64,000 bases of DNA. Origin: Chloroflexota bacterium (GTDB lineage Bacteria > Chloroflexota > Limnocylindria > Limnocylindrales > CSP1-4). Below, piece after piece: positions 2,669-64,000 of this stretch (positions are counted from its first letter, which is position 1; each line of letters opens with the position of its first letter). The translations under genes and the position numbers were made by a program. The DNA lies in NCBI GenBank assembly GCA_003158675.1, contig PMKN01000089.1:77932-141931 (forward strand), in the 5' to 3' direction. Under the pieces are notes generated by a model. That model saw nothing but the letters and a program-made list of their open reading frames with translations, did not search any database and was not told the origin of the DNA.

Positions 2669-2693
2669 CGAATCTTAGTCCGCGCCGAGCTGG

Positions 2694-4112: not shown

Positions 4113-4423
4113 GAACCCGTCCTCACGTGAGTACGTGCAGACTAGCGCGAACCGTACTTCCGTTTTCGCCTCTCTCGCGTCGTTGACCGCGCCCGACCCG
4201 TCGGGCTACACTCCGGATGGTCTGGAGGGGCAATAAACCGTGCCTCCCGACCAGCATCACCCCGCTTTCGGAGGATCTCTCCCTCTGTGGAGACCGGACC
4301 AAGTACCCCCGGCGCGTTAGACGCCGACATCCGCTCAATGGTTCGCTCCGCCCTCTAAGGGGCTCGCGCCGCCGCAGGCGCGTGCCACCACGAGGCGGCG
4401 CGACCCCGCCGTCGAGGTGGCAG
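4113..4423 (+). promoter_or_regulatory. ~310-nt divergent intergenic/5' leader upstream of the MgtE-like/Nramp operon; possible structured leader
   Basis: Unusually long non-coding leader before a metal-transport operon. It contains an AGGTGAGG element followed by the inverted repeat GTGAGG...CCTCAC. No confident riboswitch assignment is possible by eye. Confidence 0.2.
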
Positions 4424-6990: not shown

Positions 6991-7277
6991 GCGCCGCTCG
7001 TGCGGGCGGACGGCCCGCTTCGCAGGCATCCGCCCGCACGCTCGATGCCCCACGGCTAACATGAGGCGATGCCGCGTCTGATCCCGTGTGTCGTCGGCGC
7101 ACGACCCACTTCCATGAAGATGGCGCCGTCGCCGGACGCGTTTCGGCGGTGGCTCGGCCCATCCAGGCGGGGTGGTCTCCCGATCCATGCGCCCATTCCG
7201 CTCCCGTTCGAGGGCGCACCGCGTCCCTTGCGCGCCGTTCCCGAACCGACCGAACCATCGAACCGGAAGGAGAAAGG

Positions 7278-8624: not shown

Positions 8625-9997
8625 CCGCCGGCGACTCCATCCAGCTCGCGGGCGAGCTCGCCGGCCAGGTTGATCCGGTCGAACCGACCGGCCGGGTCCG
8701 CCGGCGCGGGCGCAGGGGTGTGGTCCAGCAGCCGCTCCAGGGCATCGGCGACGCTGCCCGGCTCGACGTCCGCAGCAATGCCGGTCGGAAGGCTCTCCAC
8801 CAGCGCCCGTCCCTCGCCGCGCGGCATTACGGCCAGGATCGGGCGGTCGAACGCGAGGTACTCGCTCAGCTTTCCACCGACGAAGATCTCCGCTCCGGCT
8901 ATGTCCGGCATGAGCTGCAGCAGCGCGTCCGCACCGGCCATCCTGGCGAGAGCCTTCGACCGTGGCATGAAGCCTTCGAAGCCGATTACCCCGCCCAGAC
9001 GCTCCGGTGTGTCGAACTCGGCCGCCGCCCTTGCGTTGGCGTCGTTGACGCGGCCGACGAAGTCCACCCGGAGGCGCGCTCGAAGGTCCGGCCGGCGCGC
9101 GAGCAGGCGTTCGACCCCCAGAAGGAACGTCTCCAGCTCCTTGGGGCGGTACAGGCTGCCCGCGTAAAGAAGGTGGAAGCCGCCCGGCTGGGGCGGCGGC
9201 GCCGGTTCAACACCGATGAGGTCCGACCGGTCGTAACCGTTGGGGATGTGCACGAATTTGCCGGCCAGCTCCGGGTAGCGCTCCTCGAACTGGACCCGCA
9301 TCGCGTCCACGGCCACGATCACCCGATCAGCCCGGGTCACGATCCAGCGCTCCATTCGGCGCTGCAGCCAGCGCTTGGGACGTGACATCGGCGCGGCGAA
9401 GGCATTGCCGATCCACGGATCGCGGAAGTCCGCCACCCAGGGTTTGTGAATGCGGCGCCGGATCAGGCCGGCCGCCAGATGAGTGGAGATTGGCGCCGCG
9501 CTCGAGTAGATGACGTCGCACCCATTGCCCCTGCCGGCCCGAACGCCGGCGCGCAGCGCAAAAGGCATCCAGGCGACCGAGCCGTCTGGGAAGAGCAACA
9601 CCGCCCAAACGCGGTTCCACACGACCGAAAGCTTGCGCAGGACACGCAGCGGCACGCTGCCCCGGGCCGAACTGGCCGTGAGGTCGCCGGTCACGGCCGT
9701 CGAACCGGCTGAGCGGAGCGAGCCCGCCGAGGTCCCTGTGCGCCGACTGAGCAGCCTCGCGGCCACGCTGGGCAGGCGTCCCGGCTCGAGGCTTGCCGTG
9801 CGATGGACCTCCAGCCCGGGAGCGAGCGTCGCCAGGAGCGAAGGGTCGCGGACGGGGAAGGCTGGGTCTCGCGGCGCGACCACGACCGGCTCCCACCCCC
9901 AGCGCGGCAGGTAGGTGACGTACTTGAGCGTCCGCTGAACGCCCACGCCGCCGACAGGCGGGAAGAAATACGTCACCACGAGGACGCGGCGGTTCAC
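8621..9997 (-). CDS. glycosyltransferase family 4 (GT-B fold)
   Basis: The 808-aa track ORF is an over-extension. The real start is GTG 9997, overlapping the upstream stop as GTGA. N-terminus VVTYFFPPVGGVGVQR...; C-terminal GT4 nucleotide-binding half (FVGGKLSEYLAFDRPILAV...). Confidence 0.75.
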   Translation of the reverse strand: MNRRVLVVTYFFPPVGGVGVQRTLKYVTYLPRWGWEPVVVAPRDPAFPVRDPSLLATLAPGLEVHRTASLEPGRLPSVAARLLSRRTGTSAGSLRSAGSTAVTGDLTASSARGSVPLRVLRKLSVVWNRVWAVLLFPDGSVAWMPFALRAGVRAGRGNGCDVIYSSAAPISTHLAAGLIRRRIHKPWVADFRDPWIGNAFAAPMSRPKRWLQRRMERWIVTRADRVIVAVDAMRVQFEERYPELAGKFVHIPNGYDRSDLIGVEPAPPPQPGGFHLLYAGSLYRPKELETFLLGVERLLARRPDLRARLRVDFVGRVNDANARAAAEFDTPERLGGVIGFEGFMPRSKALARMAGADALLQLMPDIAGAEIFVGGKLSEYLAFDRPILAVMPRGEGRALVESLPTGIAADVEPGSVADALERLLDHTPAPAPADPAGRFDRINLAGELARELDGVAGG

Positions 9998-11367
9998 GTC
10001 GGAGTGCCAGCTTCGACACCCGACTTGCGGCGGCGGGCCTGTCGTGCCGCGCGTCGCACGCCTGCGGCCAGGGTGCGTGCCTCCTCGCGGCCCGGAACGA
10101 TCATCGAGAGGATCGAGTTCCTCGACAGGCGGCTCGAGGCGGACACGAGGATTGCCGCAGAGACGGTGTAGGAGATCAGTGACGCGATCGAGGCGCCCTC
10201 GATTCCCAGGCGGGGAATCAGAATCACGTTCGCGGCGATGTTCGCGGCAACCGCACTTGCCGAGCCCACGGAAACAAGACCGGGCCGGCCGCGCCCGGCA
10301 ATGTAGCTCGTCATCACCTTGGACAGGCTCAAGGACATGACTGCCGGGAGCAGGATGTAGAAGGCTGGCAGGCACTCGCTGAAGCCGGGCAGAACGAGAT
10401 GTATTCCAACCCAGGCGGCGGGGATCAAGGCGAGAGCGGCCAAGCCCGTGAGCAAGACGGTGAGTCGAGAGACGCGAGGAACGAGCTCGTCCGCGTCCTC
10501 CTTCGACAGACCGGCGATGCGTGGAAGGAAGATCATCGTCACAGAATCGGGAATGTAGAAGACCAGCTCCGCCATCGTCACGGCCATGCTGTAGAGGCCA
10601 AGCGCCCCGGCGTTTCCAACCAGGAGCACGGGCATCAGGATGACGTCGATTCGGTAGTTGAAATACCCGGTGACGCTCGCCGGGTAGATTCGGAATCCGT
10701 ATCCGGCCAGGCCGCGGAACGAAACACGCTTGCCTCCCGGCTCGCGCATGGCGAGCCGTCCGACGGCCACGACATCTGCGATGGCGAGCAGCCAGGTGAC
10801 GGCGACGCTCGAGACGACCGCACCCGGAACGCCCAAGCGGAAGACCGCGACCAGAATCGTCGAGAGCATGAATGTGATCAGACCCTGTCCGATCAAGATG
10901 GCGCTGTAGGTGCGAACCTGCTGGCGGCCGAAGAGGACGGCCATCCCGAAGCTCGACAGCAGGGCGGCCGGAATGACCAGCAGGACGATCCTGAGCTCGT
11001 CCGGATAGGCTTTGGCCGCGTCCGAGAAGATGGTCGTCTGCGTCCAAGGCAGCGAGAGCCAGAGGAGCGGAATCAGGATCGCGCTCAGGATCGCCGTGAA
11101 CGCGATCCCTGCGCCGAGAAGGCCACGCAGAGACGTGCCGCGGGCGCTGAAGTAGTTGATCGCGTTTGGCAGGCCGAAGACGCCGATGGCACCGAGGAGC
11201 CCCGGCACCAGCATGACGTTCACGTAGGCGCCCTTGCCCTCTTTGCCGAGGATTCGCGAGATGACGATCGTGGTGGCAAAGGCGAGCGCGAAGGCGACGA
11301 CCTTGGTCGAGAAGACGGCCGCGACTCTTCGGCCGAAGGTGCCGCTCTGACCCGATGAGGCTGTCAT
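9994..11367 (-). CDS. polysaccharide biosynthesis protein / Wzx-like (MOP superfamily) flippase
   Basis: ATG 11367 (MTASSGQSG...). About 12 TM helices with Polysacc_synt-type N-terminal motifs (KVVAFALAFATTIVISRILGKEGKGAYV). The upstream part of the track ORF is rejected. Confidence 0.7.
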   Translation of the reverse strand: MTASSGQSGTFGRRVAAVFSTKVVAFALAFATTIVISRILGKEGKGAYVNVMLVPGLLGAIGVFGLPNAINYFSARGTSLRGLLGAGIAFTAILSAILIPLLWLSLPWTQTTIFSDAAKAYPDELRIVLLVIPAALLSSFGMAVLFGRQQVRTYSAILIGQGLITFMLSTILVAVFRLGVPGAVVSSVAVTWLLAIADVVAVGRLAMREPGGKRVSFRGLAGYGFRIYPASVTGYFNYRIDVILMPVLLVGNAGALGLYSMAVTMAELVFYIPDSVTMIFLPRIAGLSKEDADELVPRVSRLTVLLTGLAALALIPAAWVGIHLVLPGFSECLPAFYILLPAVMSLSLSKVMTSYIAGRGRPGLVSVGSASAVAANIAANVILIPRLGIEGASIASLISYTVSAAILVSASSRLSRNSILSMIVPGREEARTLAAGVRRAARQARRRKSGVEAGTPT

Positions 11368-11380
11368 CGCCGCGAGTCTA

Positions 11381-17634: not shown

Positions 17635-17791
17635 AGCGGAGGGACTGTACCACAACCTAGATCCAGGTCGCGGCGGGCCGCCTGCAGGCTTAATTTGGAC
17701 GTTTCGCTTACTTGCGCGACGGGGTACAATTTGCGGTCAGTGCCAGGCGTCTGGAGGGCGCCGGCAGGGGAGGAGACGCAGGGGCTCGCGC
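17635..17791 (+). promoter_or_regulatory. divergent intergenic region between LCP-1 and PGT-1; candidate -10 TACAAT (17725-17730) for the + strand gene
   Basis: 157-bp divergent gap. TACAAT lies 62 bp upstream of ATG 17792; a GGGGAGGAG RBS sits at 17767-17775. Confidence 0.25.
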
Positions 17792-19207: not shown

Positions 19208-19213
19208 CGCTAC

Positions 19214-20617: not shown

Positions 20618-20801
20618 ATCCCCAAGACCCTAGCACATCTTCGGCTCGGACCCCTTCTCCGAGCTGGAGGGCGTGGTTAGAATTGCTCGCGACGCCCGGC
20701 GGGCAATGCCTCGTTGAGCGTTATGCTGTGCTACAGAACGATCAAGCGACGGCGGGTTCGACGCCACGGAGCTGCCCGCGAGCAACTTGGAGGCGGGGGA
20801 A

Positions 20802-26250: not shown

Positions 26251-26442
26251 CCTTTGGTCCGCGTCTCGAGACCGCCCAACGATGGGCCGGCCGCTGCATA
26301 ATGCGGACATCAGCAGGATGTTCAGTCGCCGTCATGGCCCGACGAATCCTCCGGGCCACCCAGGAGTTGTCCCACCTTGGACCCACATAGGGTGCGAGGC
26401 GACGGACGGTGCTGCAACCTAACGGAGAGCACGGAGATCAGA

Positions 26443-27312
26443 TTGGCACTCAGCACCGGCCTCGGGCCGACTGCCACCGGGCAGGCCGATCACCAAGAAC
26501 CGACTGTGGTGATCGAAGCCAGCCACGGGTGGCGAGAGCTCGGGCTTTCCGAACTGTGGTCTCACCGAGAGCTCATGTTCTTCTTCGTCTGGCGGGACCT
26601 GAAGGTTCGATACCGCCAGACGGCCTTCGGCGCGGCATGGGCGGTCATGCAACCGGTCCTCCTGATGATCGTGTTCAGCGTCTCGGTGGGCCGCATATCC
26701 GGTGTGGGGCCCAAGAACCTTCCTTATCCCCTGTTTGCGTTCGCGGGCCTGGTGCCGTGGACGCTGTTCGCGTCGAGCCTCACCAGCGCATCCAACAGCC
26801 TGGTCAGCTCAGAGGCCATCATCACGAAGGTCTACTTCCCACGCCTGTTGCTTCCCTTCGCAGCCGTCGGCTCGTTCATCATCGACTTCCTGGTCGCGAT
26901 GGTTGTACTCCTGGTCTTGATGCTGTACTACGGCACCGTGCCAACGATCGCAGTCGTCTGGCTCCCGCTCTTCACGCTCTTCGCCCTCGTCACCGCTTTG
27001 GGGGTTGGCACGTGGCTGGCGGCGATCAACGTGCGCTACCGCGACGTGAAGTACGTTGTGCCATTTCTGGTGCAGACGTGGATGTTCGCCTCGCCGGTCA
27101 TCTACGTGAGCACTTTGATACCCGACAACTGGCGATGGTTGTATGCGTTGAACCCCATGACCGGTGTCCTTGATGGCTTCCGCTGGGCGCTCATCGGGGG
27201 CTCGAGGCCGGACTCACTCATTCTGGTCTCGGCGGCTGCCTCTGTGCTGGTCTTCACTAGCTCCCTGGTCTACTTCAAACACACCGAGCAAACGTTCGCG
27301 GACGTGATCTGA
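26443..27312 (+). CDS. wzm: ABC-2 type polysaccharide export permease (Wzm/TagG/KpsM family)
   Basis: TTG 26443, 5 nt after GGAGA. Six TM helices with the ABC-2 signature (FFFVWRDLKVRYRQTAFGAAWAVMQP). Its stop overlaps the Wzt start (TGATG at 27310-27314). Confidence 0.8.
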   Translation: MALSTGLGPTATGQADHQEPTVVIEASHGWRELGLSELWSHRELMFFFVWRDLKVRYRQTAFGAAWAVMQPVLLMIVFSVSVGRISGVGPKNLPYPLFAFAGLVPWTLFASSLTSASNSLVSSEAIITKVYFPRLLLPFAAVGSFIIDFLVAMVVLLVLMLYYGTVPTIAVVWLPLFTLFALVTALGVGTWLAAINVRYRDVKYVVPFLVQTWMFASPVIYVSTLIPDNWRWLYALNPMTGVLDGFRWALIGGSRPDSLILVSAAASVLVFTSSLVYFKHTEQTFADVI

Positions 27313-28571
27313 TGACCGACGTCGCGATCAGCGCACGAGGCCTGGCCAAGAGATACACGATTGGGGTCCAGCGAGACCCGTACGGCCGTCTGACCGAGGT
27401 CCTCTGGTCCTCGCTGGCACGGCCGTTCAGGCGCAAGAGCGCGGCTCAGCGCGGCGCCGAGTTCTGGGCCCTTCGCGACCTCTCCTTCGACGTTCAGCGC
27501 GGCACCGCAATCGGGGTAATTGGGAGGAACGGTGCCGGCAAGTCAACCCTTCTGAAGATCCTGTCGCGGATCACTGAGCCCACGCTCGGTCGCGCAGAGC
27601 TCCAGGGTCGCGTCGGGTCGCTGCTGGAGGTTGGAACCGGGTTTCACAACGAACTGACTGGCCGCGAGAACATCTCGCTGAGTGGCGCAATCCTCGGGAT
27701 GAAACGGACGGACATCACCCGACGATTTGACGAAATCGTGGCGTTCGCCGATATCGGTCCCTTCATCGATACGCCGGTGAAGCGCTATTCGAGTGGCATG
27801 AAGGTCAGACTCGGTTTCGCGGTGGCGGCATTCCTAGAGCCCGAGATCCTCTTGATCGACGAGGTTCTGGCGGTCGGCGACGCCGCGTTCCAGAGGAAAT
27901 CCATCGGCCGAATCGAGGATGTCACGAACGAAGGTCGGACGGTCATGTTCGTCAGCCACGATCTGGGGGCTGTGGCGAACCTGACCCAGACCTGCCTGTA
28001 TCTCGAATCTGGGCGCCTGAAGCAACTCGGCCCCACCAGGGAGGTCGTACACGCCTACCAGATGGATGGGCTACTCGCACGCGACGACCCGGGTCGCGGG
28101 TTGTCTTTCTACCGACGTTCGGAGGTGCCGGGCGCACCCGTCCGGATCACCAGCATCGCCGCGGTCTCGACACGGCCAGAGCGCGCGACCATCGATCTGG
28201 GCAGCCCTCTGGAGATCGACATCGGAATCGACGTGACGACGCCGATCGAGAGGCTGCCCATAGACGTAACGATCAAAGACCAGCGCGGCCGGACCGTGGC
28301 GATCCTGTTCTCCCCGGATCAAGGCTTCACGCTCACTTCATCCCGTGGCACCGCGTCGATCCATTTGCGCATCGAGGACCTGCCCCTGGCTCCGGGAACC
28401 TACTTCGTCGACGTTGGATTGAACCAGAGCCCGCCCCACACGACGGCATTCGACGTGATCCTCGATTTCCCGATTGTCGAGGTTGAGAACTCGGGACAAG
28501 TCGTCCAGTGGCTGGAGCGACCGTGGGGTTCTCTGCAGCCGCAGCGAGTGGACTGGCGGCGGTCAGCTTGA
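27312..28571 (+). CDS. wzt: polysaccharide ABC exporter ATP-binding protein Wzt with C-terminal glycan-binding (Wzt_C-like) domain
   Basis: Walker A GRNGAGKST, signature YSSGMKVRLGF, Walker B ILLIDEVLAVGD, H-loop FVSHD. An extra ~170-aa C-terminal beta-rich domain follows the NBD, as in O-antigen Wzt proteins that read a terminal modification. Confidence 0.85.
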   Translation: MTDVAISARGLAKRYTIGVQRDPYGRLTEVLWSSLARPFRRKSAAQRGAEFWALRDLSFDVQRGTAIGVIGRNGAGKSTLLKILSRITEPTLGRAELQGRVGSLLEVGTGFHNELTGRENISLSGAILGMKRTDITRRFDEIVAFADIGPFIDTPVKRYSSGMKVRLGFAVAAFLEPEILLIDEVLAVGDAAFQRKSIGRIEDVTNEGRTVMFVSHDLGAVANLTQTCLYLESGRLKQLGPTREVVHAYQMDGLLARDDPGRGLSFYRRSEVPGAPVRITSIAAVSTRPERATIDLGSPLEIDIGIDVTTPIERLPIDVTIKDQRGRTVAILFSPDQGFTLTSSRGTASIHLRIEDLPLAPGTYFVDVGLNQSPPHTTAFDVILDFPIVEVENSGQVVQWLERPWGSLQPQRVDWRRSA

Positions 28572-38715: not shown

Positions 38716-40709
<1,994 letters not shown>

Positions 40710-40810
40710 ACACCTCTCGCCGCGGCCCAACTCCACCCGGCGAGAATCCCGCCGCGGCACGGGCCGACGACTTCGCCTCCGTCAACCTGGCTTCACTCGA
40801 CTCCCCGCCC

Positions 40811-42382
40811 GTGCCCGCCGATGGGCAGACGGCGTTCCCGCCTGAAATCGATCCAGGCATCGCTGCGGAGCCCGAGCCCGGCTATGACGGCGGGGCACTC
40901 ATCACGGCATCGACGCTCACGCTGATCTCGTCGGCGACCGGCCTGGTCATCGGGTTACTCCGGTCGAAGCTGGTGGCCGTCCTGGTCGGAAGCAAGGGCG
41001 TTTCGATCCTCTCGAACCTCAACATCTACAACGCCTTCGCAGCCACCGCCGGAACCGCCTTTGCGGGCCCGGGCTCGACTCGAGCCATTGCCGCCGCGAG
41101 GGCAGAGGGACGCGACGAGCGGGTGGACTGGCTGATCCGCTACAGCTTCCTGGTTCCGCCGGCTATCGGCCTGCTGATTCTGACGGTCACCGTGGTCTTC
41201 GCTCAGCAGATCTCAGGTCTGGTGATGGGCGACACCCAGTACGCCGATCTGGTTGCCATATCTGCGGTAGCAATTCCACTGACCCTTCTCGGGGCCTCCT
41301 ACGCCGGGGTTCTCCAGGGGTTCATCCGAATCGGGTCCCTGGCCAAGGCGAGCATCGCGACGACGCTCGTCTCGCTCATCGTCACTGTGGCATTCGTGCT
41401 GGCCTTCGGCCTGAGAGGAGCAATCGTCGCCACCTCCATCGTCGCCCTGGTGCAGGTAGGCATCTTCCTGCTGCGCGAGCCCTGGGTGGTACGAGAGCGT
41501 CGCTGGCGCCGTCGACTGAGCTTCGATTGGGCCGCCTTGCACCCAGTCCTTCAGCTCGGGCTTGCCAGCGTGGCCCTGACCGTCGCAAGCACGCTGGTGG
41601 CTCTGCTGATCCGGAGCGACATCGTCCGCGTGGTGGGGCTGGAGCAGAACGGCGTCTACCAGCCCGTGGCGGCGATCTCGGACACCTACCTCGAGTTGCT
41701 GATTTCGTCGACTTCCTTCTACCTGTTCCCGCGGCTGACGGAACTTCTGAGCGCCGGCCGCCGGACCGACGCCTCTGCCGAAGTCGGGCACGGCTTGCGA
41801 GTGATCCTGGCCGTCACGGTGGTATTGCTGCTGCTCGCGATCGCCTTTGGCGAGCCGATCGTGGTCCTGTTGTACTCGGACCAGTTCCGCGGGGCTGCCG
41901 ATCCGCTGGCGATCCAGATGACGGGCAACATCCTGAAGGTGGTCATCTGGTCGGCCAGCGCGGCCCTCCTTCCGCTGGGGTACTACCGCGCCTGGCTCGT
42001 GCTCGGCCTGTGCCATCTCGCGATCAAGTATTTCGGGACGCATCTGCTTCTGCCGGGCATGGGCCTGGACGGCGTGGCCGTCGCCTATGACCTGGCCTGG
42101 GCATTCACCTTCCTGGCCGAGGGTTTCCTGGTCGTGGCCGTCATCAAAGTCGGGCCGCGCTGGCACGACTGGCAGCGCGCCATCATCGCCGCTGCGCTCG
42201 TGGTCTTCACCTTCGGTGCCCATTCCCTCAACCACGGCCTGGGCATGCTCGCGGCCGTCGCGGCGCTCCTCGCCTGGCTCGCAGTTTCGCGCGCGGATCT
42301 CGTGGATCTGGCTCGGACGCTCAGCGGACTGGCCCGGCCGCGCCTGCAGGCGCTCCGTCGTGGGGGCGGTCCCGGCGAGTAA
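40811..42382 (+). CDS. polysaccharide biosynthesis protein / Wzx-like flippase (MOP superfamily), second copy
   Basis: About 12-14 TM helices with Polysacc_synt-like topology. The start is uncertain: first in-frame GTG after the fcl stop is 40811; the track start 40556 would overlap fcl by 150 bp. Confidence 0.55.
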   Translation: MPADGQTAFPPEIDPGIAAEPEPGYDGGALITASTLTLISSATGLVIGLLRSKLVAVLVGSKGVSILSNLNIYNAFAATAGTAFAGPGSTRAIAAARAEGRDERVDWLIRYSFLVPPAIGLLILTVTVVFAQQISGLVMGDTQYADLVAISAVAIPLTLLGASYAGVLQGFIRIGSLAKASIATTLVSLIVTVAFVLAFGLRGAIVATSIVALVQVGIFLLREPWVVRERRWRRRLSFDWAALHPVLQLGLASVALTVASTLVALLIRSDIVRVVGLEQNGVYQPVAAISDTYLELLISSTSFYLFPRLTELLSAGRRTDASAEVGHGLRVILAVTVVLLLLAIAFGEPIVVLLYSDQFRGAADPLAIQMTGNILKVVIWSASAALLPLGYYRAWLVLGLCHLAIKYFGTHLLLPGMGLDGVAVAYDLAWAFTFLAEGFLVVAVIKVGPRWHDWQRAIIAAALVVFTFGAHSLNHGLGMLAAVAALLAWLAVSRADLVDLARTLSGLARPRLQALRRGGGPGE

Positions 42383-46634: not shown

Positions 46635-46737
46635 CTAGGCCCGCACCGGACGTCCTGCCGACGAGCGTTACGAACGAGGGATTCTCCGGAATGGCTCCTG
46701 TCGGCGATGCTAGCCACGTTCCAGCCTTGGAGGTCTC

Positions 46738-49700: not shown

Positions 49701-49857
49701 CCCCGGGTCGTCGACGATCAACTTCCCCGTGGGTGACAACCGCGCCAACGGAGTCTCCCTGCAACTATCGTCGACGGGCACGCTTTCGATCGTCTACGTG
49801 GCAGGCGGCGGCGCCACAACGCACTTCATCTTCGACGTCACGGGCTACTACCACTAG
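46738..49857 (+). CDS. secreted multidomain glycoside hydrolase (clan GH-A TIM-barrel) with N-terminal beta-sandwich domains, Pro-rich linker and three C-terminal ~132-aa tandem repeats
   Basis: Signal peptide MPVFRRRFATIASLAVLAAATLLPGGATRSLAAAA. GH-A acid/base motif HYWEIWNEEN and nucleophile motif IWITEYGW. Linker PPTPPAPPAPTPPSPPAPTDPPTP. Three repeats each start xRLLD(T/S)R and end DVTGY(F/Y). Confidence 0.75.
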   Translation: MPVFRRRFATIASLAVLAAATLLPGGATRSLAAAASYGPSSMVLSEFDKAGEWLSGSSSGTLTTVTSPKTSGSGALKIDYNLTNATSVSIQQFGTPPELPGLARHVSLDVYGDGSWNVVYFEIRDATGEILRYWVGNISFTGWQTMSVDIGSAVPVSGLDGNADKVLDLPGSFSQLVIYKNNGAKALVSTIYVDRLTYEYDPNGATADTPIFVPSAGGSSVVRVSLADQGQFNLRLTDEAGRYRTFAGTAGNGSDWSATWDGLDDAGNMMTGSVRGSLIVARSTKAIYQLPYFAGLPARPAGSNPALRGVNSFLTEIDTASRAKAEQEARLMESDYLGMAREEFEWKRVEPVQSDFEWAKFDQAVAIESAHGIGILGKLVYGSPWDNSAPKGTPLATALMYPPSDIYPFVDYAVATVHRYKDKVHYWEIWNEENQSGFWKPQPNAAQYTQVLMATYRAIKAEDPTATVVLGGLSTGPDSTFLKGIKDAGGWDYFDVLAIHSYVTGKPDGSAYERWITDAKNIVASYGSKPIWITEYGWSSYSGGTTTANQSAYLMRSYEIAAAAGVAGNFWFEFVNRGANTSDVYQNWGILNSDLSPKPAYSGFGCEAQAIYAGGLPNCSGSAPPTPPAPPAPTPPSPPAPTDPPTPSTYPDSTFTGLKPTRLLDTRIGLGLSGAFTAGTPRTFKVAGDLGGSLGTVVPSTAIAVTGNLTVTAETARGYVFLGPQATSTPGSSTINFPAMDNRANGVTVPLASDGSLSAVYIAPGGATVHVVFDVTGYFDPGTNGAFYVAVPPVRLLDSRIGNGLSGEFVSKVPRTFAVAGRQDASGNVVVPADALAVTGNLTITGQTTNGYAYIGPDSTGNPTSSSVNAPALDNRANNVVVALDSTGSLSVVFVGPNGSKAHLVFDVTGYFTKSGGWTYVPATPTRLLDSRSGNGASGVFTSHVPRGFGVIDRGPVPHGALAVTGNLTVTSQTAKGFGFAAPSTTANPGSSTINFPVGDNRANGVSLQLSSTGTLSIVYVAGGGATTHFIFDVTGYYH
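48716..49857 (+). repeat. 3 x ~396-bp tandem direct repeats, in-frame and coding, within the glycoside hydrolase gene
   Basis: Repeat starts at about 48716, 49114 and 49510. Repeats 1 and 3 begin with near-identical DNA (acccggttgctcgac...). Confidence 0.7.
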
Positions 49858-57243: not shown

Positions 57244-58971
57244 TCAGCCGACGGTTGGCGCCGCGTCCGTTGTCTGTGGAATTTCCTCAACTCCCAGGAG
57301 ACCGAGGGCTGCGAGCGTCCACATCGGGATCGCGACGGCAGGCTCGTCCAGGACGGGGATGAACAAGGCTCCCGCCGCAAGCCCGACCACGACCGCCAGC
57401 GCCGCCCTGGAAATGGGGATCGCGCGCCCGCGCCACAGCCTGCGGACAACCACCGCCGCGAGAGCGAACAGTGCGAAGAGGCCGAAGTAACCGGCCTGCC
57501 ACAGGTAATCCAGGTACCACATCTCGCTGTTGATGAGCACAACCGGCTCGCCGAAACGGCCCGACTTGGGGCCGACCGCGCCCAATCCCATGCCGAAGGG
57601 TTCCAGGTGGGTCCCGGTGGAAACCTCTGAACACACGTCCACGAACCGGAGGCCCTGAACGGGCGCGCTCGGTGTTGGCGCTGGGCTGGACGACGATGGC
57701 ACGCTCGACGCAGGAGGCGGGCAGGGAGCGGCGGTCGGAGCAGCAGGCGACGTTGCGGCGGGCGTCGTCGCGGCGGGCGTCGTCGCGGCGGGCGTCGTCG
57801 CGGCGGGCGTTGCAGGCGGCGCCGACGCGCCAGGCGCGGTCTTGGCAGGCGTCGCCGACGCGCCAGGCGCGGTCTTGGCAGGTGCCGTCCCGGCAGGCGT
57901 CGCCGCGGCGGGCGTTGAGGATGGCGGCGGCGTGTCGGTCGCGGCGGGATTTTCGATATTCCCGCCAGCAATCTGGCCCAGCTGGGCGAGGTGGGCTGCG
58001 GCCGACGGATCCCGTCCGCCGAGCGTCGCGCCAACGAAGTTGGCGAGCCCCGACGTGCTGACTATTGCGGTCACCAGAACCACGAACAAGGCAACCGGCA
58101 GGGCGAACGTTCGCCACCATTGGGGCCTGCGGAGCCGAGAGCCCAGCGCCACGATCTGCTCGCGCTTACGTGGCAGCGTCACTGCGAAAAGCACCAGGGC
58201 GAACATGAGCGAAACCCAGGCGCTCCGGGAGATCGAAAGCACGAGAGCCGCGCCCAGGGGCACGCTAATCAAGGCCCGCATGCGACCCCTGATTGGCACG
58301 GCCGCAGTGACACATAGAAGGCACAGGCCTATAACGAGGAACGCACCGAACTCATTGGGCGAGTTGAATGTCCCGATGGCTCGAGGCTGTGTGATCTGAG
58401 TCGCGAAGTAGGAGTCGGATAGAGAACCATCTTCTGACCGGTAGAAGGTGCCAAGAAACGAGAAGCCCCCGACGTAGACTTGCCAGAAGGAGAAGAGCGA
58501 GGCGACGACCCCCGAGATCACGATCGTCAGGGCCGCCCGGGAGGGCAAGCCCGAGGGAATGCGCCGGCCGCGTCCGAGCACGACCACCGCGACCGCGAGC
58601 GCAATCGGCTCGAAGAACGTGCGATACGCGTAGAGAGCCGTGGTCAAGTGCTCGGCGACCAGCACGGAGTCGAGGCCAAGGGCAAGGACGACCGCGGTCG
58701 TGAGCTCGAGGGCGCCAAACGCCCGAGGGCGGGTTCGAAGCCAATGGAACCCAGCCGCCACGATAACCCCGGCAGCCAGGGCGTCGTGCCATGCGGCGAG
58801 CATCGTGGCGGTGACGCCGGTAAGACCGAGTTGGGACCCGACAACGTGCAGAAAGAGGCCGTTGAAGGGAAGCCCCGCGAGCAGGACCAGTAAGCCGAGC
58901 CAGGGCCGGGCGACCGCCACGACGAACAATGCCAGAAGCGCGATCGTCAGAACTATCAGAGCAACGCTCAA
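57244..58971 (-). CDS. Wzy_C-domain membrane protein (O-antigen ligase/polymerase-like) with internal Pro/Thr/Ala repeat linker
   Basis: Ten or more TM helices. Wzy_C hallmark (FNSPNEFGAFLVIGL...LSISRSAWVSLMFALV). A ~70-aa low-complexity insert (TPAATTPAATTPAATTPAATSPAAP...AKTAPGASATPAKTAPGASAPP). Confidence 0.65.
   Translation of the reverse strand: MSVALIVLTIALLALFVVAVARPWLGLLVLLAGLPFNGLFLHVVGSQLGLTGVTATMLAAWHDALAAGVIVAAGFHWLRTRPRAFGALELTTAVVLALGLDSVLVAEHLTTALYAYRTFFEPIALAVAVVVLGRGRRIPSGLPSRAALTIVISGVVASLFSFWQVYVGGFSFLGTFYRSEDGSLSDSYFATQITQPRAIGTFNSPNEFGAFLVIGLCLLCVTAAVPIRGRMRALISVPLGAALVLSISRSAWVSLMFALVLFAVTLPRKREQIVALGSRLRRPQWWRTFALPVALFVVLVTAIVSTSGLANFVGATLGGRDPSAAAHLAQLGQIAGGNIENPAATDTPPPSSTPAAATPAGTAPAKTAPGASATPAKTAPGASAPPATPAATTPAATTPAATTPAATSPAAPTAAPCPPPASSVPSSSSPAPTPSAPVQGLRFVDVCSEVSTGTHLEPFGMGLGAVGPKSGRFGEPVVLINSEMWYLDYLWQAGYFGLFALFALAAVVVRRLWRGRAIPISRAALAVVVGLAAGALFIPVLDEPAVAIPMWTLAALGLLGVEEIPQTTDAAPTVG
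57763..57925. repeat. perfect short tandem DNA repeats (15-bp unit x4; 33-bp unit x2) encoding the TPAAT/AKTAPGASA linker of the Wzy_C protein
   Basis: gcggcgggcgtcgtc x3 plus a variant fourth unit; ggcg(g/t)cgccgacgcgccaggcgcggtcttggca x2. Confidence 0.8.
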
Positions 58972-59091
58972 GACTTGGTTCCCTCATCCTCGTGGGCGCT
59001 CGGGACGTGGCCACAGGCCACCCATGCAACCGTACCACGGACGCCCTCCAGATCGCCGCGGGGCCAGCGATCGGAACAGAGGGCCGTCTCT

Positions 59092-60072
59092 TCAGTCAGA
59101 TCGGTCCACGGATGGGTCCGCCATCGACCGTGGCCCCTTGAGCACGACGGCGACACCGACAAGAAGCCCTCGGGTCGCCGGCGTCGCCGCCGGCCCCCTC
59201 CGAAGCAGCGCCCTCGCCCATCGACGAGCAACGCCGCCCGTCAAGTAAAGGAGCCCGGAAGCGATCGTGCGTCGCGAGCCGAACTTGCGGACGATGATCA
59301 GGGCGTTTCGGAAATGGTAGTACTCCAGCGTTCTGGAGACTACGGATCCGTGGATCGCGTGGTTGATTGCCGCGCCGGAAACAACGCCCAGTTTCCAACC
59401 TGCCCTGCGCATTCGAAGGCTCAGATCTACGTCTTCCCAGAACAGAAAGAGCGGCTCCCAGAACAATCCGGTGTCCTTGAGCGACGCGCACCTGATGAAC
59501 ATCGCGCAGCCGGTGACGTACTCAGTCTCGATGACTACAGCGCCCTCGACTGGACGGACCGAATGACGCGTCTCCGCTCGTCCGAGGAGGACCCTGCCAC
59601 CGGCATACCAGATGCCGGATGGTGCTTCCGGGCCAATTGGGGCCGAGATCAGGGGGCTGACGATGCCGTACGCCGGGTTCGACTCCATCGCGTCGACGAG
59701 CAGCCGGATGCAGGTCCGGTCCACGGTCGTGTCGTTGTTCAGGACCCAGGCGTATGCCGCGTTGTGAGCCACAGCCCACCGCAGCCCGAGATTCGCGCCG
59801 CCGCCGTAGCCAAGGTTCGTGCCGGACGCGATGACTTGGACCCGATCGCCGAATTCGGCCGAGAGCCGCTCCGCGTCGCCTGCGGGTGAAGCGTTGTCGA
59901 CGACAACCACCGAATGGCGATCATAGGAGGAGGCGAGCAAGGACTGGACGCATCGCCGCGTGTCATCGAGTCCGCCATAGTTGACCACGATGGCAACGAC
60001 CAGCGGGTTGGATCGGTCCGCAAGCGCGGTAGCTTCGGAAGAAGCGGCCTCAGGATGGGGGCTGGATGTCAA
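59092..60072 (-). CDS. glycosyltransferase family 2 (WbbL-like)
   Basis: VVAIVVNYGGLDDTRRCVQSL...VVVVDNASPAGD...TNLGYGGGANLG...LNNDT...WEDVDLSLR. Confidence 0.8.
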   Translation of the reverse strand: MTSSPHPEAASSEATALADRSNPLVVAIVVNYGGLDDTRRCVQSLLASSYDRHSVVVVDNASPAGDAERLSAEFGDRVQVIASGTNLGYGGGANLGLRWAVAHNAAYAWVLNNDTTVDRTCIRLLVDAMESNPAYGIVSPLISAPIGPEAPSGIWYAGGRVLLGRAETRHSVRPVEGAVVIETEYVTGCAMFIRCASLKDTGLFWEPLFLFWEDVDLSLRMRRAGWKLGVVSGAAINHAIHGSVVSRTLEYYHFRNALIIVRKFGSRRTIASGLLYLTGGVARRWARALLRRGPAATPATRGLLVGVAVVLKGPRSMADPSVDRSD

Positions 60073-60257
60073 CGCGACGGGACCGGACTCACGGCGCAGA
60101 TGATAGCATCCGAGCCGCCGCGGACGGCCGGAGCGGCGGCGGTCCGACTCCTGCGCGACGTGGCGAGCCGCGCACCAGTGGCCCTCATGGGATGGTCCGG
60201 GACGCCGCGAGGCTGCGTGGTGGCCCCACGGCGCGAGTTGACGAAACGCGAGTGCAA

Positions 60258-61376
60258 ATGAAGATCTGTTTCATCAGCGGGGCGCTGCCAGAGGTGTCAT
60301 GCGGGGTCGGGGATTACGTGGACGCCCTTGCCCGAGCTCTCGCCCGACTGGGTCACGAGGTGGTCGTGCTGACCACCGCGTCGCCCGATCTCCGCCCCTC
60401 ATCGGGCTATCGGACAGTGCCCCTGCGAACCGCCTGGTCTTTGCGCGACACCGGGCGAATCGCGGCCGCCGCGCAACGGGAGCATCCGGACGTTCTCCAT
60501 CTGCAGTTCCCCGGCGTCGGGTTCGGCCGGGGGTTCGGCGCCTGCTTCGCGCCCTGGGCTGTCCGGCTCCGCGGAGCCCGGCCCCGTCCTCTGCTGGCGA
60601 CTACGCTGCATGAGTTCCACAGGTTTCGGCTGCGCTACAGAACGAGACTCGCCCTCGCGGTGGCGGCCTGCGACCTCGTGATTGCGCCGGACCCCACCGT
60701 GCTGGCCTCCGTCGCGCGACACCTCGAGTGGCGGCGGGGCCTGGACACGGCGATGATCCCATTGGCCGCGAACGTCTGGCCCGCCGCGCCGTCCTCCCTT
60801 CCAAACGAACCGCTCGACAGAGCCGAGCTGGTTGTTGGATATTGGGGATTCCTTCGGCAGGACAAAGGGGTCGATCTCCTGCTGGAAGCCTTCGCCCAGG
60901 TCCAACGAGTCCGACCCGCCCGGCTCGTCCTCGCGGGCGACCCTGGACCTGAGGCCGAATACATCGCCTCGATCTCGCGCAAAGCCGGGGAACTCGGACT
61001 CGGGTCCTCGATCCATACCACCGGCAGGTTGTCGGCTGAACGGCTCTCGCAGGAACTCCAGTCCTTCGACGTGTGCGTCCTGCCGTTTCGGGACGGACTT
61101 CTGAAGAACAGGGGCACCTACGCCGGAGCGGTCGCTCACGGGCTCTATGTGGTCACCACGAGCCGGGGCAATCGCGGATTCGACCCGGAGACGAATACGA
61201 CCCTGGTTCCTCCGGACGATCGCGACGCCCTGGTCGGTGCAATCCTAGAAGCGCCAGCCCATCCGCCGAACCCAAGCCCGGCTTCCACATCCGAGAAGGC
61301 ATGGGATGAGATAGCGGTCCTCCATCTGGCCGCATACGCAAGGGCTGCGGGCAACCACGGATTCGCTCTCGAATGA
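60258..61376 (+). CDS. glycosyltransferase family 4
   Basis: ATG 60258 (MKICFISGALPEVSCGVGDYV...). GT-B C-terminal half with the PFRDGLLKNRGTYAGAVAHGLYVVTT region. Confidence 0.75.
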   Translation: MKICFISGALPEVSCGVGDYVDALARALARLGHEVVVLTTASPDLRPSSGYRTVPLRTAWSLRDTGRIAAAAQREHPDVLHLQFPGVGFGRGFGACFAPWAVRLRGARPRPLLATTLHEFHRFRLRYRTRLALAVAACDLVIAPDPTVLASVARHLEWRRGLDTAMIPLAANVWPAAPSSLPNEPLDRAELVVGYWGFLRQDKGVDLLLEAFAQVQRVRPARLVLAGDPGPEAEYIASISRKAGELGLGSSIHTTGRLSAERLSQELQSFDVCVLPFRDGLLKNRGTYAGAVAHGLYVVTTSRGNRGFDPETNTTLVPPDDRDALVGAILEAPAHPPNPSPASTSEKAWDEIAVLHLAAYARAAGNHGFALE

Positions 61377-61526
61377 ACTGGATCGCGCCGGTGGACCAGC
61401 GGACCGACCGGAACGAGGGCAGACGCCGGACGAGCCCGACCGGTGAGGCTATCCTTCCATCCGCACGCGGCCAGTCGGCGCCCTGAATGGCTCCCCTAGC
61501 GTGACAAGATGGGTGCGCATGCCACG

Positions 61527-62603
61527 ATGAGTGCGCGAATCGCAGCGTTCGATCTCAGGTCTGCGGCCGGGAAGCCAACCGGGATAGGCAAGCACTTGCT
61601 CTCGATCTCGTTGGCCGCGGCGCAACTCTCCGACGTCAAGGTCCGCGTCTACACAGCCGGCGCCGACCTTGAGTTGCCTCCCTCGATCGAAATCGTGGCA
61701 GTGGCCCGGCATGGCTTGCCCTGGCACCTGGCGGTGTGGCGGCATCTTCGTCGCCACCCCGTGACGGCATACGTCTCGACGAGTCTCGTCGTCCCATCGC
61801 TACCGGGCGTGCCAGCGCTCCCGGTAGTCCTCGACATGAGCAGCTTCCGCGTTCCCGAGCACCAGACGCGTCGCACGAGGCTTTTCGAGCACGCCCTGCT
61901 GGGACGAGCCGTGAGCCACCACCCACTGATCTTCGGGTCCCAGGCCGCAGCCAGCGACTGCCGAGACCTCTTTCCCAGGGCCAGGGGAGTGGTCGTGCCG
62001 CCGTGGTTTCCGCAGCGACCGCCCGCCGCGCCGCCAGCGGCGGACTGGCTGGCTGGCCTTGGCATAAGCAAGCCCTACGTGCTGATAGTCGGCACGATAG
62101 AGCCGCGCAAGAACGTTCCGCTGGCCGCTCGGGTTGTGGCCAGTCTCCGAGAGCAAGGCCGAGACGTGCGGCTTGTCGTGGTGGGCCGAAGGGGGTGGTC
62201 GAGCGACAGCGAGATGGCAGCTCTGCAGGAGTGGCAACGGCAAGGCACTGTCGTCTGGCCCGGCTATGTGACCGACGACCAGCGTGACGCACTGTATGCC
62301 GAAGCGTCCGCGCTGCTGCTGCCTTCTGTCTACGAGGGGTTCGGCATGCCTCTGGTGGAGGCGATGGCGGCCGGGGTGCCGTGCTGCTGCTCGGCCATTC
62401 CGGCGTTCGAGGAAGTCGCGGGAGACGCCGCGATCAAGCTCGATCCGGGGCAACCCACCAGGTGGGTTGAGACGCTTGGCGCGCTTCTCGACGATCCGGA
62501 ACTGGCGGACCGGATGAGGAGGGCCGGTCTTGCCAGGGCCGCGACCTACTCGCTTGAGAGGACGGCCCACGCATTCGCTCTGGCGCTCGACCAGACGATC
62601 TAG
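61527..62603 (+). CDS. glycosyltransferase family 4
   Basis: C-terminal E-x7-E region (LLLPSVYEGFGMPLVEAMAAGVPCCCSAIPAFEEV). Confidence 0.7.
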   Translation: MSARIAAFDLRSAAGKPTGIGKHLLSISLAAAQLSDVKVRVYTAGADLELPPSIEIVAVARHGLPWHLAVWRHLRRHPVTAYVSTSLVVPSLPGVPALPVVLDMSSFRVPEHQTRRTRLFEHALLGRAVSHHPLIFGSQAAASDCRDLFPRARGVVVPPWFPQRPPAAPPAADWLAGLGISKPYVLIVGTIEPRKNVPLAARVVASLREQGRDVRLVVVGRRGWSSDSEMAALQEWQRQGTVVWPGYVTDDQRDALYAEASALLLPSVYEGFGMPLVEAMAAGVPCCCSAIPAFEEVAGDAAIKLDPGQPTRWVETLGALLDDPELADRMRRAGLARAATYSLERTAHAFALALDQTI

Positions 62604-62929
62604 CCGATCTGCCGCGGATCGGTTGGAGCGACACCACCATGCCGCGACGCCGCTCGCGAGAACAGAACCGCCAACGACGCCACCAGGAACGAAGGAGATC
62701 GCACGCAGCGGTGCGACGGCGAAGTTTCGCGCCGGAAGTACGCGGACACACTTTGGCAGCGGCAGGAATCGCGTAAGCCTGGAGTCGCTACCATAGTCGG
62801 CGAACGACGGGCCTGATTGGGGCCGCGACTGGGAGGTATCAGTGCCAGAAGGGGCGCCCCGGGCCGCTGGGGTTGCGGTGCCGGCTGCTGCAGGCAGCGC
62901 TGCCACGCTCAGCCGAACCGCCAGGCTCA

Positions 62930-64000
62930 TGACATGGGCGCTTGTGGGGCTGGTCGTATGGCTGCCGCTCCAAACGCCAGTCGCGATCGCCGTCTTTCAG
63001 TATGGAAACTCGGTAGACCTCTCTCGCGCCACACTCCTCCTCAAAGACGTCGTCGTGGCATTCCTGCTGCTTTACGCGTTGGCCGCGAACTGGCGCTCGT
63101 TGGACCTGCGCTGGTTCGACAAGGCGGCGGTTGCATATGCCGTTCTGGTGGCGGTCTACTCCACTGTCCCGTGGCTGCTGGGCTCGCACCAGACGGTGTC
63201 TGCCGTTACGGCCGCCGCGCGCATGTTCGCTCTGCCGGTTGAGGCCTACGCCCTCGGACGGTTGGCGTTCCTCGCCGGCGCCGACCTGAGAGTCGTGTTC
63301 AAGGCTTTCGTCGCCGCCTCGGCAGTCATCGCGGCCACGGCCGTGATCGAGTACTACCTTCTGCCGATCACCTTCTGGTCGTCGACGCTGGATCTCATCA
63401 CATTCGAGCGGGTCGTCCAGGGACTCCCCCAGGCCGTAAGCCTTTGGGACATCAGCCTGCTGGGCGACTACGGAGCGGGAGGGGGGGTGTTCCCACGCGC
63501 CATCGCCACCTTCACTCATCCGGTGGGTGCGGGAGGCTACTTCATCCTCCCGCTCGCACTGACTGTGGCAGCGTGGTACGGCCGCGAGGCCCACGGCAAG
63601 CGGCTGATCACGGCTGGGCTGATCGGCCTAACGATCCTCTTTGGGCTCGCCACAGTCGTGACCATTTCTCGAGGCGCGTGGATGGCGGGCGCCGTCGTGG
63701 TGGTCATGTGTGGATTGATGTTTCACCGACTGCGCATCGCCTTTGTCTGCCTGGTAGTGGTCGGTGTGTTCTTTGTGAGCGTCCCGCCCTTCAACGCTTC
63801 GATCACGTCGGCTTTCAACCGAAACGACGCGTCACTGCTGGGTCACGCGGAGGCAATCGGCCGCGATGTGCAGGCCGCAGTCGCGCATGTCTTCGGCCTC
63901 GGGATCGGCAGCACGGACCAAGGCGTGAATATCGACACCGGGCCCACGCCGAACCCGTCGGCACCGCCTACGCCGAACCCCTCGGCACCGCCTACGGCGA
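62930..64000 (+). CDS. Wzy_C-domain (O-antigen ligase-like) membrane protein, partial (runs off window end)
   Basis: Manual translation from ATG 62930: MTWALVGLVVWLPLQTPVAIAVFQYGNSVDLSR... It has multiple TM helices, the Wzy_C hallmark TVVTISRGAWMAGAVVVV, and ends in a PTPNPSAPPTPNPSAPP repeat. Absent from the ORF track (no stop in window). Confidence 0.55.
63945..64000 (+). repeat. 24-bp tandem repeat (acgccgaacccNtcggcaccgcct) encoding the PTPNPSAP linker at the window edge
   Basis: Two full units plus the start of a third, visible directly in the sequence; truncated by the window end. Confidence 0.75.

Follow-up and report, generated by a model that had tools for sequence, protein, structure and literature searches.

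The window analysed here, a stretch of 64,000 nucleotides (nt) from contig PMKN01000089.1 of a Chloroflexota bacterium (assembly GCA_003158675.1), carries near its downstream end two genes, referred to as gene 1 and gene 2, whose products are predicted to belong to the Wzy_C/WaaL-fold superfamily and which each contain a disordered, low-complexity insert encoded by short tandem repeats. Both genes had been singled out in an earlier annotation made from the nucleotide sequence (hereafter the original prediction), most of which was borne out, in part with corrections. The features on which the analysis is based are listed below in window coordinates, with lengths in base pairs (bp) or amino acids (aa).

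57244..58971, minus strand: gene 1, an intact open reading frame (ORF) with a TTG start, encoding a 575-aa polytopic membrane protein
58216..58230, minus strand: SRSAW motif of gene 1 with the invariant R249, equivalent to E. coli WaaL R215
57661..57951, minus strand: insert 1 (aa 341-437, 97 aa), disordered and A/P/T/S-rich (32% A, 28% P, 19% T, 12% S)
57743..57915, minus strand: decayed 15-bp periodic tract (Tandem Repeats Finder (TRF): 11.5 copies, 72% matches) that holds the two younger arrays
57755..57810, minus strand: perfect 15-bp array of ACGCCCGCCGCGACG, 3.73 copies in 56 nt, encoding (T)PAAT repeats; copy number polymorphic
57817..57882, minus strand: two copies of a 33-bp unit encoding PAKTAPGASA(T/P), 63 nt identical; copy number polymorphic
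57523..57525, minus strand: codon of the invariant E483 of gene 1 (E-x10-G-x2-G), at the position of the WaaL catalytic His
62842..64000, plus strand: gene 2, cut by the window end, starting at GTG 62842 (530 aa) or ATG 62929 (501 aa)
63667..63681, plus strand: SRGAW motif of gene 2 with the invariant R248, equivalent to E. coli WaaL R215
63937..64000, continuing to 64068, plus strand: insert 2 (aa 337-380, 44 aa), disordered and P/T/Q/S-rich (23% P, 20% T, 14% Q)
63943-64014, cut at 64000, plus strand: imperfect 24-bp array of three units (PTPNPSAP, PTPNPSAP and PTANPSAQ), the third of which is cut
64090-64092, beyond the window, plus strand: codon of the invariant E388 of gene 2, at the position of the WaaL catalytic His

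The product of gene 1 is identical to a protein from a matching metagenome contig (P0102). Gene 2, originally reported as a partial gene at 62930, was completed from JGI metagenome 3300037212 contig Ga0395678_0000002 (311 kb), which is identical to the last 7,072 nt of the window; the stop would be at position 64434, past the window end, and the full product (P0031/P0108) has 501 aa, or 530 aa if translated from the GTG. The NCBI/ENA copy (P0108) is called from GTG 62842 and the JGI copy from ATG 62929. The former is probably the true start, because the segment RTARLMTWAL, located upstream of ATG 62929, is conserved at the protein level in the gene 2 homologues P0033, P0035 and P0036. Direct comparison of the two products by BLASTP gave a short match only; their family profiles align over 393 columns with 99.5% probability (hhalign), and gene 1 and gene 2 are therefore distant paralogues within the superfamily. 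The nearest homologues in genome collections were found in metagenome-assembled genomes (MAGs) labelled Chloroflexota or Chloroflexia from fen peat and Danish soils, the closest gene 1 orthologue among them (locus L003) being 66% identical; an ORF of the same locus (13520-14962) was considered as a gene 2 orthologue and rejected. The idea that the two genes are pseudogenes broken by insertions was also rejected, given that both ORFs are uninterrupted, that the catalytic residues do not vary and that inserts are kept across the clade.

Assignment to the superfamily is based on both profile and structural comparisons. With the Pfam Wzy_C profile (PF04932), gene 1 scored 25.1 bits and gene 2 22.1-22.4 bits, both under the gathering threshold of 31.7 bits, and insert-free homologues scored above it (P0023, 44% identical to gene 1, 40.3 bits; P0047, 50% identical to gene 2, 36.8 bits). 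Gene 2 reached 31.6 bits once insert 2 had been excised in silico, and the score of gene 1 went from 25.1 to 25.5 bits on removal of insert 1. In addition, a precomputed PF04932 annotation is present on most homologues. AlphaFold (AF2) models were confident outside the inserts, with predicted local distance difference test (pLDDT) and predicted template-modelling (pTM) scores of 80.9 and 0.80 for gene 1 and of 87.0 and 0.86 for gene 2. When these models were compared with the PDB using Foldseek, the ligase WaaL (7TPG_B) was the top match of both at a probability of 1.00 (gene 1: E 0.045, target-normalised TM-score 0.53; gene 2: E 2.9e-5, target-normalised TM-score 0.60, with FtsW next), and 7TPG was the sole clear structural match in either case. 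Searches of PDB sequences with both family profiles returned no match, even at E<=10, and hhalign comparison of the profiles with the single E. coli WaaL sequence was uninformative (probability 0.1-0.2%). According to the positive-inside rule, gene 2 would have 12 transmembrane segments with both termini inside (N-in/C-in), and in both proteins the K/R-rich loops all lie on one side, the conserved motifs and both inserts being on the extracytoplasmic side, as had been proposed. Taken as modelled, both proteins are polytopic and WaaL-like in fold, late transmembrane helices being joined by a long outer loop, and the SR(S/G)AW motif falls within this Wzy_C-like fold, its Arg occupying the WaaL R215 position of the profile.

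Residue equivalences were mapped through the coordinates of the Pfam Wzy_C profile, on which E. coli WaaL residues 205-354 correspond to positions 6-146, R215 lying near position 16 and H338 near position 130. The residues R215, R288 and H338 are essential and common to E. coli WaaL and PglL (PMC3643930), and R215 of WaaL binds the phosphate of undecaprenyl diphosphate (Und-PP) (PMC10920833, PMC3643930). A survey of clan GT-C1 described Und-PP as bound by the arginines, with one to two conserved outer-face Arg in the Wzy-type polymerases (BP-Pol), and Glu or Asp at the ligase-His site as typical of the Wzy/BP-Pol families; no BP-Pol structure existed at that time (PMC10920833). In P0023, P0047 and P0031 the mapping was exact, the R215 position being taken by the arginine of SR(S/G) and the H338 position by a Glu, and an [H/E]-x10-G-x2-G register is common to WaaL (catalytic His H338 in E. 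coli, H313 in C. metallidurans) and both families. The SRGAW motif originally assigned to both genes was confirmed for gene 2, whereas gene 1 has SRSAW instead.

The Glu at the WaaL-His site is strictly conserved, being found in all 30 members of family 1 (gene 1), all 68 of family 2 (gene 2) and 136 of 140 subfamily representatives. The latter are the 140 best-scoring representatives of an exhaustive subfamily profile search that yielded 783 clusters at 50% identity with E<=1e-10 (8657 with E<=1e-3), and the subfamily signature is S-x3-H ... GxGxG ... E-[NS]-x9-G-x2-G. Invariant arginines are R197, R249 and R472 in gene 1 and R190 and R248 in gene 2. The second WaaL Arg site (S-x3-R288), which was mapped by motif register only, is His in both window proteins; by the same register it is R in 16 and H in 14 of the 30 family 1 members and H in all 68 of family 2. 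Thus, both proteins show the conserved acidic residue and outer-face Arg of Wzy-type polymerases, and neither keeps the R-R-H triad of WaaL and PglL, the His being replaced by Glu. The NCBIfam ligase model PRK15487 (RfaL) gave 16.4 bits for gene 2 against a cut-off of 277 and no match for gene 1, and Pfam scans of both proteins at E<=0.1 returned Wzy_C alone, with no PglL_A domain. Because Glu replaces the WaaL catalytic His and the genes have Wzx, phosphoglycosyl transferase and LCP (LytR-CpsA-Psr) neighbours, these patterns favour a polymerase over a ligase for both proteins.

The two inserts interrupt the predicted outer loop at different points. Insert 1 follows the second extracytoplasmic helix (S323-x3-H327) and precedes the FGxGLG motif, with an AF2 pLDDT of <50 over residues 342-452; insert 2 is located between the GxGxG motif and E388, ending 8 residues before this Glu, with a pLDDT of about 40-57 per 10-residue block over roughly residues 331-380 and <50 for 360-383. 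Since the insert 2 site is about 25 alignment columns past the insert 1 site, the inserts are independent events. They had been described as Pro/Thr/Ala linkers; low-complexity segments are indeed present in both proteins, but they sit within the loop of one domain and are not linkers between domains. A role as interdomain tethers was rejected for the same reason, as the chain re-enters the same domain after each insert. The spacing at the gene 1 site is 136 aa here versus a basal 20 aa in distant homologues, and the loop at the gene 2 site is 57-60 aa, depending on the anchor residue, versus a basal 14-17 aa. Among the 140 representatives, which belong to the gene 2 subfamily, the median loop at the latter site is 17 aa, only seven loops exceed 30 aa and the 60 aa of the window protein is the longest, which agrees with the earlier statement that such segments are unusual in the Wzy/WaaL family. 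On these alignments, the inserts are rare and lineage-specific. Long inserts (79-136 aa), similar in composition and unrelated in sequence, are present in each of the six closest gene 1 homologues, at 56-65% identity, and a 41%-identical homologue (P0012; locus L014, 7012-7400) has, at the same place in the loop, a 99-bp array of its own (3.9 copies, 98% matches) that codes for four P/G/S/T-rich units of ~33 aa. In addition, two cysteines of gene 1, at aa 416 and 447 (window about 57631-57726; APCPPP ... VDVCSEV), flank the C-terminal part of insert 1 and may possibly form a loop-closing disulfide; the pair also occurs in homologues P0002, P0003 and P0006, and not in P0004 or P0005.

With regard to the DNA encoding the inserts, the repeats had been reported as perfect. 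This holds for the 15-bp array, although with 3.73 rather than four copies, whereas the two 33-bp units differ at one position (31 in the second) and neighbouring units of the imperfect 24-bp array differ at 2 positions. The TRF scores of 135 (33-bp pair), 123 and 97 are those of the three best arrays in the 64 kb, and the maximum in 30 dinucleotide shuffles of the window was 69; the arrays are far above chance. The decayed tract at 57743-57915 is the footprint of repeated rounds of unit duplication, and the inserts arose by tandem duplication of in-frame units (15, 33 and 24 bp) at two separate points in the long extracytoplasmic loop. All repeat units (15, 33 and 24 bp, and 99 bp in P0012) and all observed insertions or deletions (indels) are multiples of three, so that loop length changes and there is no on/off switching; on/off phase variation, having been considered, was rejected on this ground. 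A further array was noticed in a 1048-aa glycoside hydrolase (GH)-like protein (46714-49857, plus strand; weak Glyco_hydro_cc and Cellulase matches), the very P/T-rich linker of which, APPTPPAPPAPTPPSPPAPTDPPTPS, is encoded by a 24-bp repeat of 2.3 copies (48608-48663; TRF 77, the fourth-best array). P/T repeat linkers are therefore not confined to Wzy_C genes, and this third repeat-encoded P/T segment in a secreted protein of the window points to a general propensity of this genome.

Variation in repeat copy number was detected among closely related sequences, for which the evidence rests on members of protein clusters. The 90%-identity cluster of gene 1 contains three full-length alleles of 575, 570 and 564 aa. 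The 575-aa allele is present on 5 contigs from both JGI and NCBI/ENA, the 570-aa allele lacks one PAATT unit and the 564-aa allele lacks one 11-aa unit. Compared to the window, locus L011 (ENA ERZ27248413) showed 0 mismatches over 7,127 aligned nt and a single 15-nt gap corresponding to the loss of one unit, and locus L012 (ENA ERZ28662526) differed, over 4,779 nt, by a single gap of 33 nt, again the loss of one unit, and by one mismatch, which lies within the repeat. The repeats are thus not invariant among close relatives, each shorter gene 1 allele lacking exactly one 15-bp or 33-bp unit. As the sole polymorphisms among the three independent assemblies are whole-unit array indels and one single-nucleotide polymorphism (SNP) within the repeat, the gene 1 arrays gain and lose units far faster than they acquire point substitutions, and they constitute an in-frame variable-number tandem repeat (VNTR), that is, a length-polymorphic coding tandem repeat. 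A second cluster, 99% identical, shows a 5-aa indel in the linker. The expected variation in length by slippage was accordingly observed in gene 1 (the alleles of L011 and L012) but not in gene 2, whose 24-bp array showed no copy-number difference among near-identical copies; a 94%-identical homologue of gene 2 (P0032) has one 8-aa unit fewer. An exact gapped pattern spanning the 15-bp array, which matches the window, gave 0 matches in metagenome_contigs, and a protein-guided scan of the same collection returned 3 distant loci only.

Two further sequences show irregularities at or just after the linker. P0105 (393 aa, on a 1.3-kb ENA contig) matches gene 1 without a difference as far as the beginning of the linker and is completely divergent from there on, its tail not being a frameshift reading of the window DNA. 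This fragment is either a rearranged allele or the product of a break or chimera that arose at the repeat during assembly. The gene 1 orthologue of L003 (8001-9602), which comes from a Microflora Danica MAG, is frame-shifted right after its P/T-rich linker, probably due to a long-read sequencing error in the GC-rich repeat, a genuine frameshift being the other possibility.

Both genes are part of a cell-wall glycopolymer cluster of roughly 55 kb, extending from about 7 kb to the window end (G+C 66%). It includes sugar-nucleotide enzymes (among them GDP-mannose dehydratase and RmlC), many GT2 and GT4 glycosyltransferases (GTs), a WecA-like GT4, a PMT_2-like GT-C, an acyltransferase and a methyltransferase-GT4 fusion, and continues past the window with more GTs and another PMT_2-like protein. 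The components that bear on the function of the two Wzy_C genes are as follows.

40418..42382 (stop-to-stop ORF), plus strand: Wzx-like MOP flippase (Pfam Polysacc_synt_3, 41.4 bits)
9994..11370, minus strand: tentative candidate for a second MOP-like flippase, with at least 10 hydrophobic segments and sub-threshold MatE/SpoVB matches
26302..28571, plus strand: Wzm (ABC2_membrane) followed by Wzt (ABC_tran and Wzt_C), the ATP-binding cassette (ABC) transporter route
16114-17736, minus strand: LCP enzyme, paired with a Bac_transf phosphoglycosyl transferase at 17456-19207 (plus strand)
19214-20629, minus strand: LCP enzyme, paired with a Bac_transf phosphoglycosyl transferase at 20718-22214 (plus strand)

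Two Wzx-like flippases had originally been proposed, of which the one at 40418-42382 is well supported (it also matches an NCBIfam WzxE-like model at E 1.7e-25, below the cut-off), whereas the one at 9994-11370, whose product has no Pfam match, is only weakly so. The LCP/Bac_transf pairs (16114-22214) are both divergent, and each Bac_transf protein has a CoA_binding_3 domain; this suggests two parallel modules for initiation and wall attachment, a number that agrees with the pairs of Wzy_C and MOP-like genes. Wzy_C genes have a Wzx flippase, GTs and an initiating phosphoglycosyl transferase beside them not only in the window but also in the compact locus L014, in which the family 1 member P0012 is the sole Wzy_C protein and is accompanied by RmlC, LCP, Bac_transf, four GTs and Wzx. 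It had also been suggested that a Wzy-type system operates alongside the ABC route, and the cluster does combine Wzy_C genes, flippases and Wzm/Wzt, polymerisation being favoured over the ligation that had been left as an option. In the segment 26302-30461, Wzm and Wzt, the latter with a Wzt_C carbohydrate-binding domain, are followed by the methyltransferase-GT4 fusion, an arrangement similar to that of terminator/export modules in ABC-dependent pathways for O-antigen or S-layer glycans. No Wzz chain-length regulator of the polysaccharide co-polymerase (PCP) type was found in the roughly 70 kb examined, and no lipopolysaccharide (LPS) core genes were seen there.

Taken together, the reading that we favour, with a probability of about 0.6, is that both genes encode Wzy-type polymerases that use Und-PP-linked glycans (WaaL/Wzy_C fold, clan GT-C1) and have tolerated, slippage-generated loop inserts. 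In such a scheme, the two Bac_transf initiators and the numerous GT2 and GT4 enzymes would assemble repeat units on undecaprenyl phosphate, and the MOP/Wzx flippases would carry these across the membrane; on the outer side, the polymerase would hold the Und-PP-linked chain by means of its conserved arginines (R197/R249/R472 in gene 1, R190/R248 in gene 2), the invariant Glu (E483 or E388) would activate the acceptor hydroxyl, and the LCP enzymes would then join the polymer to peptidoglycan. The inserts are most likely tolerated, slippage-prone surface loops outside the catalytic machinery. By analogy with P/T linkers of other high-GC bacteria and with P/T-rich segments of other secreted proteins, the inserts might possibly be O-glycosylated.

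Several observations weigh against this reading. The window proteins themselves score below the Pfam gathering value, no Wzz-type regulator accompanies them in the roughly 70 kb, and the choice between polymerase and ligase or O-oligosaccharyltransferase hangs on one residue class together with gene context. Moreover, an ABC-transporter route is present in the same cluster, and in other organisms this route needs a WaaL-like or WsaB-like terminal transferase; the Wzm/Wzt genes (with Wzt_C) and methyltransferase-GT4 fusion found here resemble ABC-dependent S-layer glycan clusters that end with a Wzy_C-type O-oligosaccharyltransferase. It is thus conceivable, though unlikely, that the two proteins are terminal transferases (WaaL-like ligases or WsaB/PglL-like O-oligosaccharyltransferases) which move a finished Und-PP-linked glycan, for instance the Wzm/Wzt product, onto a lipid, a glycan or a surface protein, or that the pair consists of one polymerase and one ligase; the missing co-polymerase would fit this possibility, and so would the ligase WaaL as best and only clear structural match. 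However, WaaL is apparently the only solved member of the fold (PMC10920833), so that the top match does not discriminate, and the R-R-H triad of the transferases (PMC3643930) is not kept, an invariant Glu replacing the His and a His the second Arg in the window proteins. The lack of a PglL_A domain in Pfam scans and the low RfaL score (16.4 bits versus 277) argue in the same direction. Furthermore, two LCP ligases are already there for wall attachment, and L014 is a complete Wzx/Wzy-type cluster whose sole candidate polymerase is the family 1 member.

Points against the favoured polymerase reading also arise from the inserts and their alleles: long inserts are kept across homologues of 56-65% identity and could be under selection instead of being just tolerated, the differences between alleles were observed in metagenome assemblies of short reads, and each shorter allele is on one contig only. 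The arrays might serve as an adaptive contingency mechanism, in which a heritable and fast-changing loop length beside the active site tunes the length or structure of the polymer, or alters an exposed epitope or a contact with phages, and thereby creates useful heterogeneity in the population; this is considered decidedly unlikely. Three otherwise identical haplotypes of 4.7-7.1 kb that differ only by repeat-unit indels and one SNP inside the repeat, retained inserts of like composition and unrelated sequence, an independent 99-bp array at the same site in a distant homologue, the end of insert 2 only 8 residues before the catalytic Glu and the lack of a separate chain-length regulator gene in the roughly 70 kb would all be compatible with such a mechanism. 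On the other hand, each insert starts and ends within one and the same folded domain, and therefore the inserts cannot act as module-moving tethers and a change in length repositions no module; the repeat-encoded P/T segment of the GH-like protein indicates a general mutational habit in a GC-rich genome rather than a device specific to polymerases, and the imperfect gene 2 array is invariant among near-identical copies. Persistence across the clade and the proximity of insert 2 to the Glu nevertheless leave room for a functional role of the inserts. The more specific proposal, a loop-length contingency device built into the polymerase that replaces or supplements the Wzz-type regulator missing from the cluster, appears very improbable; in it, changes in the length of a disordered and perhaps glycosylated loop next to the active-site Glu would shift chain length or product, or the recognition by phages or antibodies. 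It is also highly unlikely that the copy-number differences are artefacts, produced by collapse or expansion of short tandem repeats during assembly, instead of real alleles. All sequences concerned are indeed metagenome assemblies, the divergence of P0105 inside the linker implies that assemblers do break there, and the long-read MAG orthologue is frame-shifted just past its linker. However, the arrays are 56 and 66 nt long, which is below the typical read length and the k=141 implied by a MEGAHIT contig name, and copy number should therefore be resolved. In addition, each deletion is exactly one unit, the 575-aa allele was recovered on 5 contigs of different sources, and the 33-bp deletion allele has a new base in the remaining unit, which collapse alone would not create.

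Compared with known systems, the window proteins are most similar to the Wzy-type BP-Pol of clan GT-C1 (PMC10920833), with which they share a polytopic architecture, a long extracytoplasmic loop near the C-terminus, outer-face Arg, Glu at the ligase-His site and adjoining genes for Wzx, phosphoglycosyl transferase and glycosyltransferases. They differ in having a disordered, repeat-encoded insertion of 44-97 aa in the catalytic loop, in their origin from uncultured Chloroflexota and in the absence of a Wzz/PCP partner from the region. WaaL (7TPG; E. coli WaaL; GT121) is the best structural match and is similar in the 12-segment N-in/C-in topology of gene 2, the Wzy_C profile region, the first Arg (R215 equivalent) and the [H/E]-x10-G-x2-G register, whereas the window proteins have Glu for the catalytic His and His for the second Arg, fall far below the cut-off of the RfaL model and are encoded in a cluster with LCP ligases. 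Chloroflexota are generally regarded as lacking LPS. O-oligosaccharyltransferases such as PglL, PilO and WsaB belong to the same Wzy_C-containing superfamily, and their protein targets are Ser/Thr residues in Ala/Pro/Ser-rich low-complexity segments, similar in composition to the inserts described here; however, the window proteins lack a PglL_A motif and, unlike PglL, do not keep the R-R-H triad (PMC3643930). The inserts also resemble the PT-box linkers of secreted GHs in high-GC bacteria and the VNTRs of surface proteins in being disordered, P/T-rich, extracytoplasmic and encoded by short in-frame tandem repeats whose copy number shifts by slippage, although PT-box linkers join separate domains of soluble or surface proteins and these inserts lie within the loop of a single catalytic membrane domain. 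With regard to the cluster as a whole, dual-pathway wall clusters of Gram-positive cocci, in which an ABC-dependent rhamnan occurs together with Wzx/Wzy-type side chains and is attached by LCP, similarly combine an ABC route, Wzx/Wzy-type components, rhamnose-pathway genes and LCP (PMC9574508); the window represents a different phylum with two Wzy_C paralogues.

In general, the two proteins add new members to a superfamily that is already known; their architecture is unusual and demonstrably length-polymorphic, and they do not represent a new kind of system. As far as we know, Wzy-type polymerases are among the least understood enzymes of surface polysaccharide synthesis, and those of Chloroflexota are almost uncharacterised. 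By its presence in 136 of the 140 subfamily representatives, the Glu lends support from natural variation to the idea that polymerases have an acidic residue in place of the ligase His. Disordered sequence of 40-140 aa is tolerated at two points of the catalytic loop, and these may be regarded as ready-made permissive sites for tags or engineering. A coding VNTR that changes in the wild between otherwise identical genomes could help to tell closely related strains apart in metagenomes of peat and soil. An effect of loop length on the polymer, if there is one, would amount to a new mechanism by which surface diversity arises.

Outside the two genes, the upstream end of the window (812-8624) is unrelated to the cluster and encodes a PolX/PHP DNA polymerase, a GAF-GGDEF diguanylate cyclase, an MgtE-like protein and Nramp; it is followed by a UDP-glucose/GDP-mannose dehydrogenase, which may mark the start of the glycan cluster. 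A perfect 12-bp repeat of 2.5 copies, GGGCGAGGTCGC, was also detected at 13643-13672, at the 3' end of an epimerase-like gene (13635-15026, minus strand).

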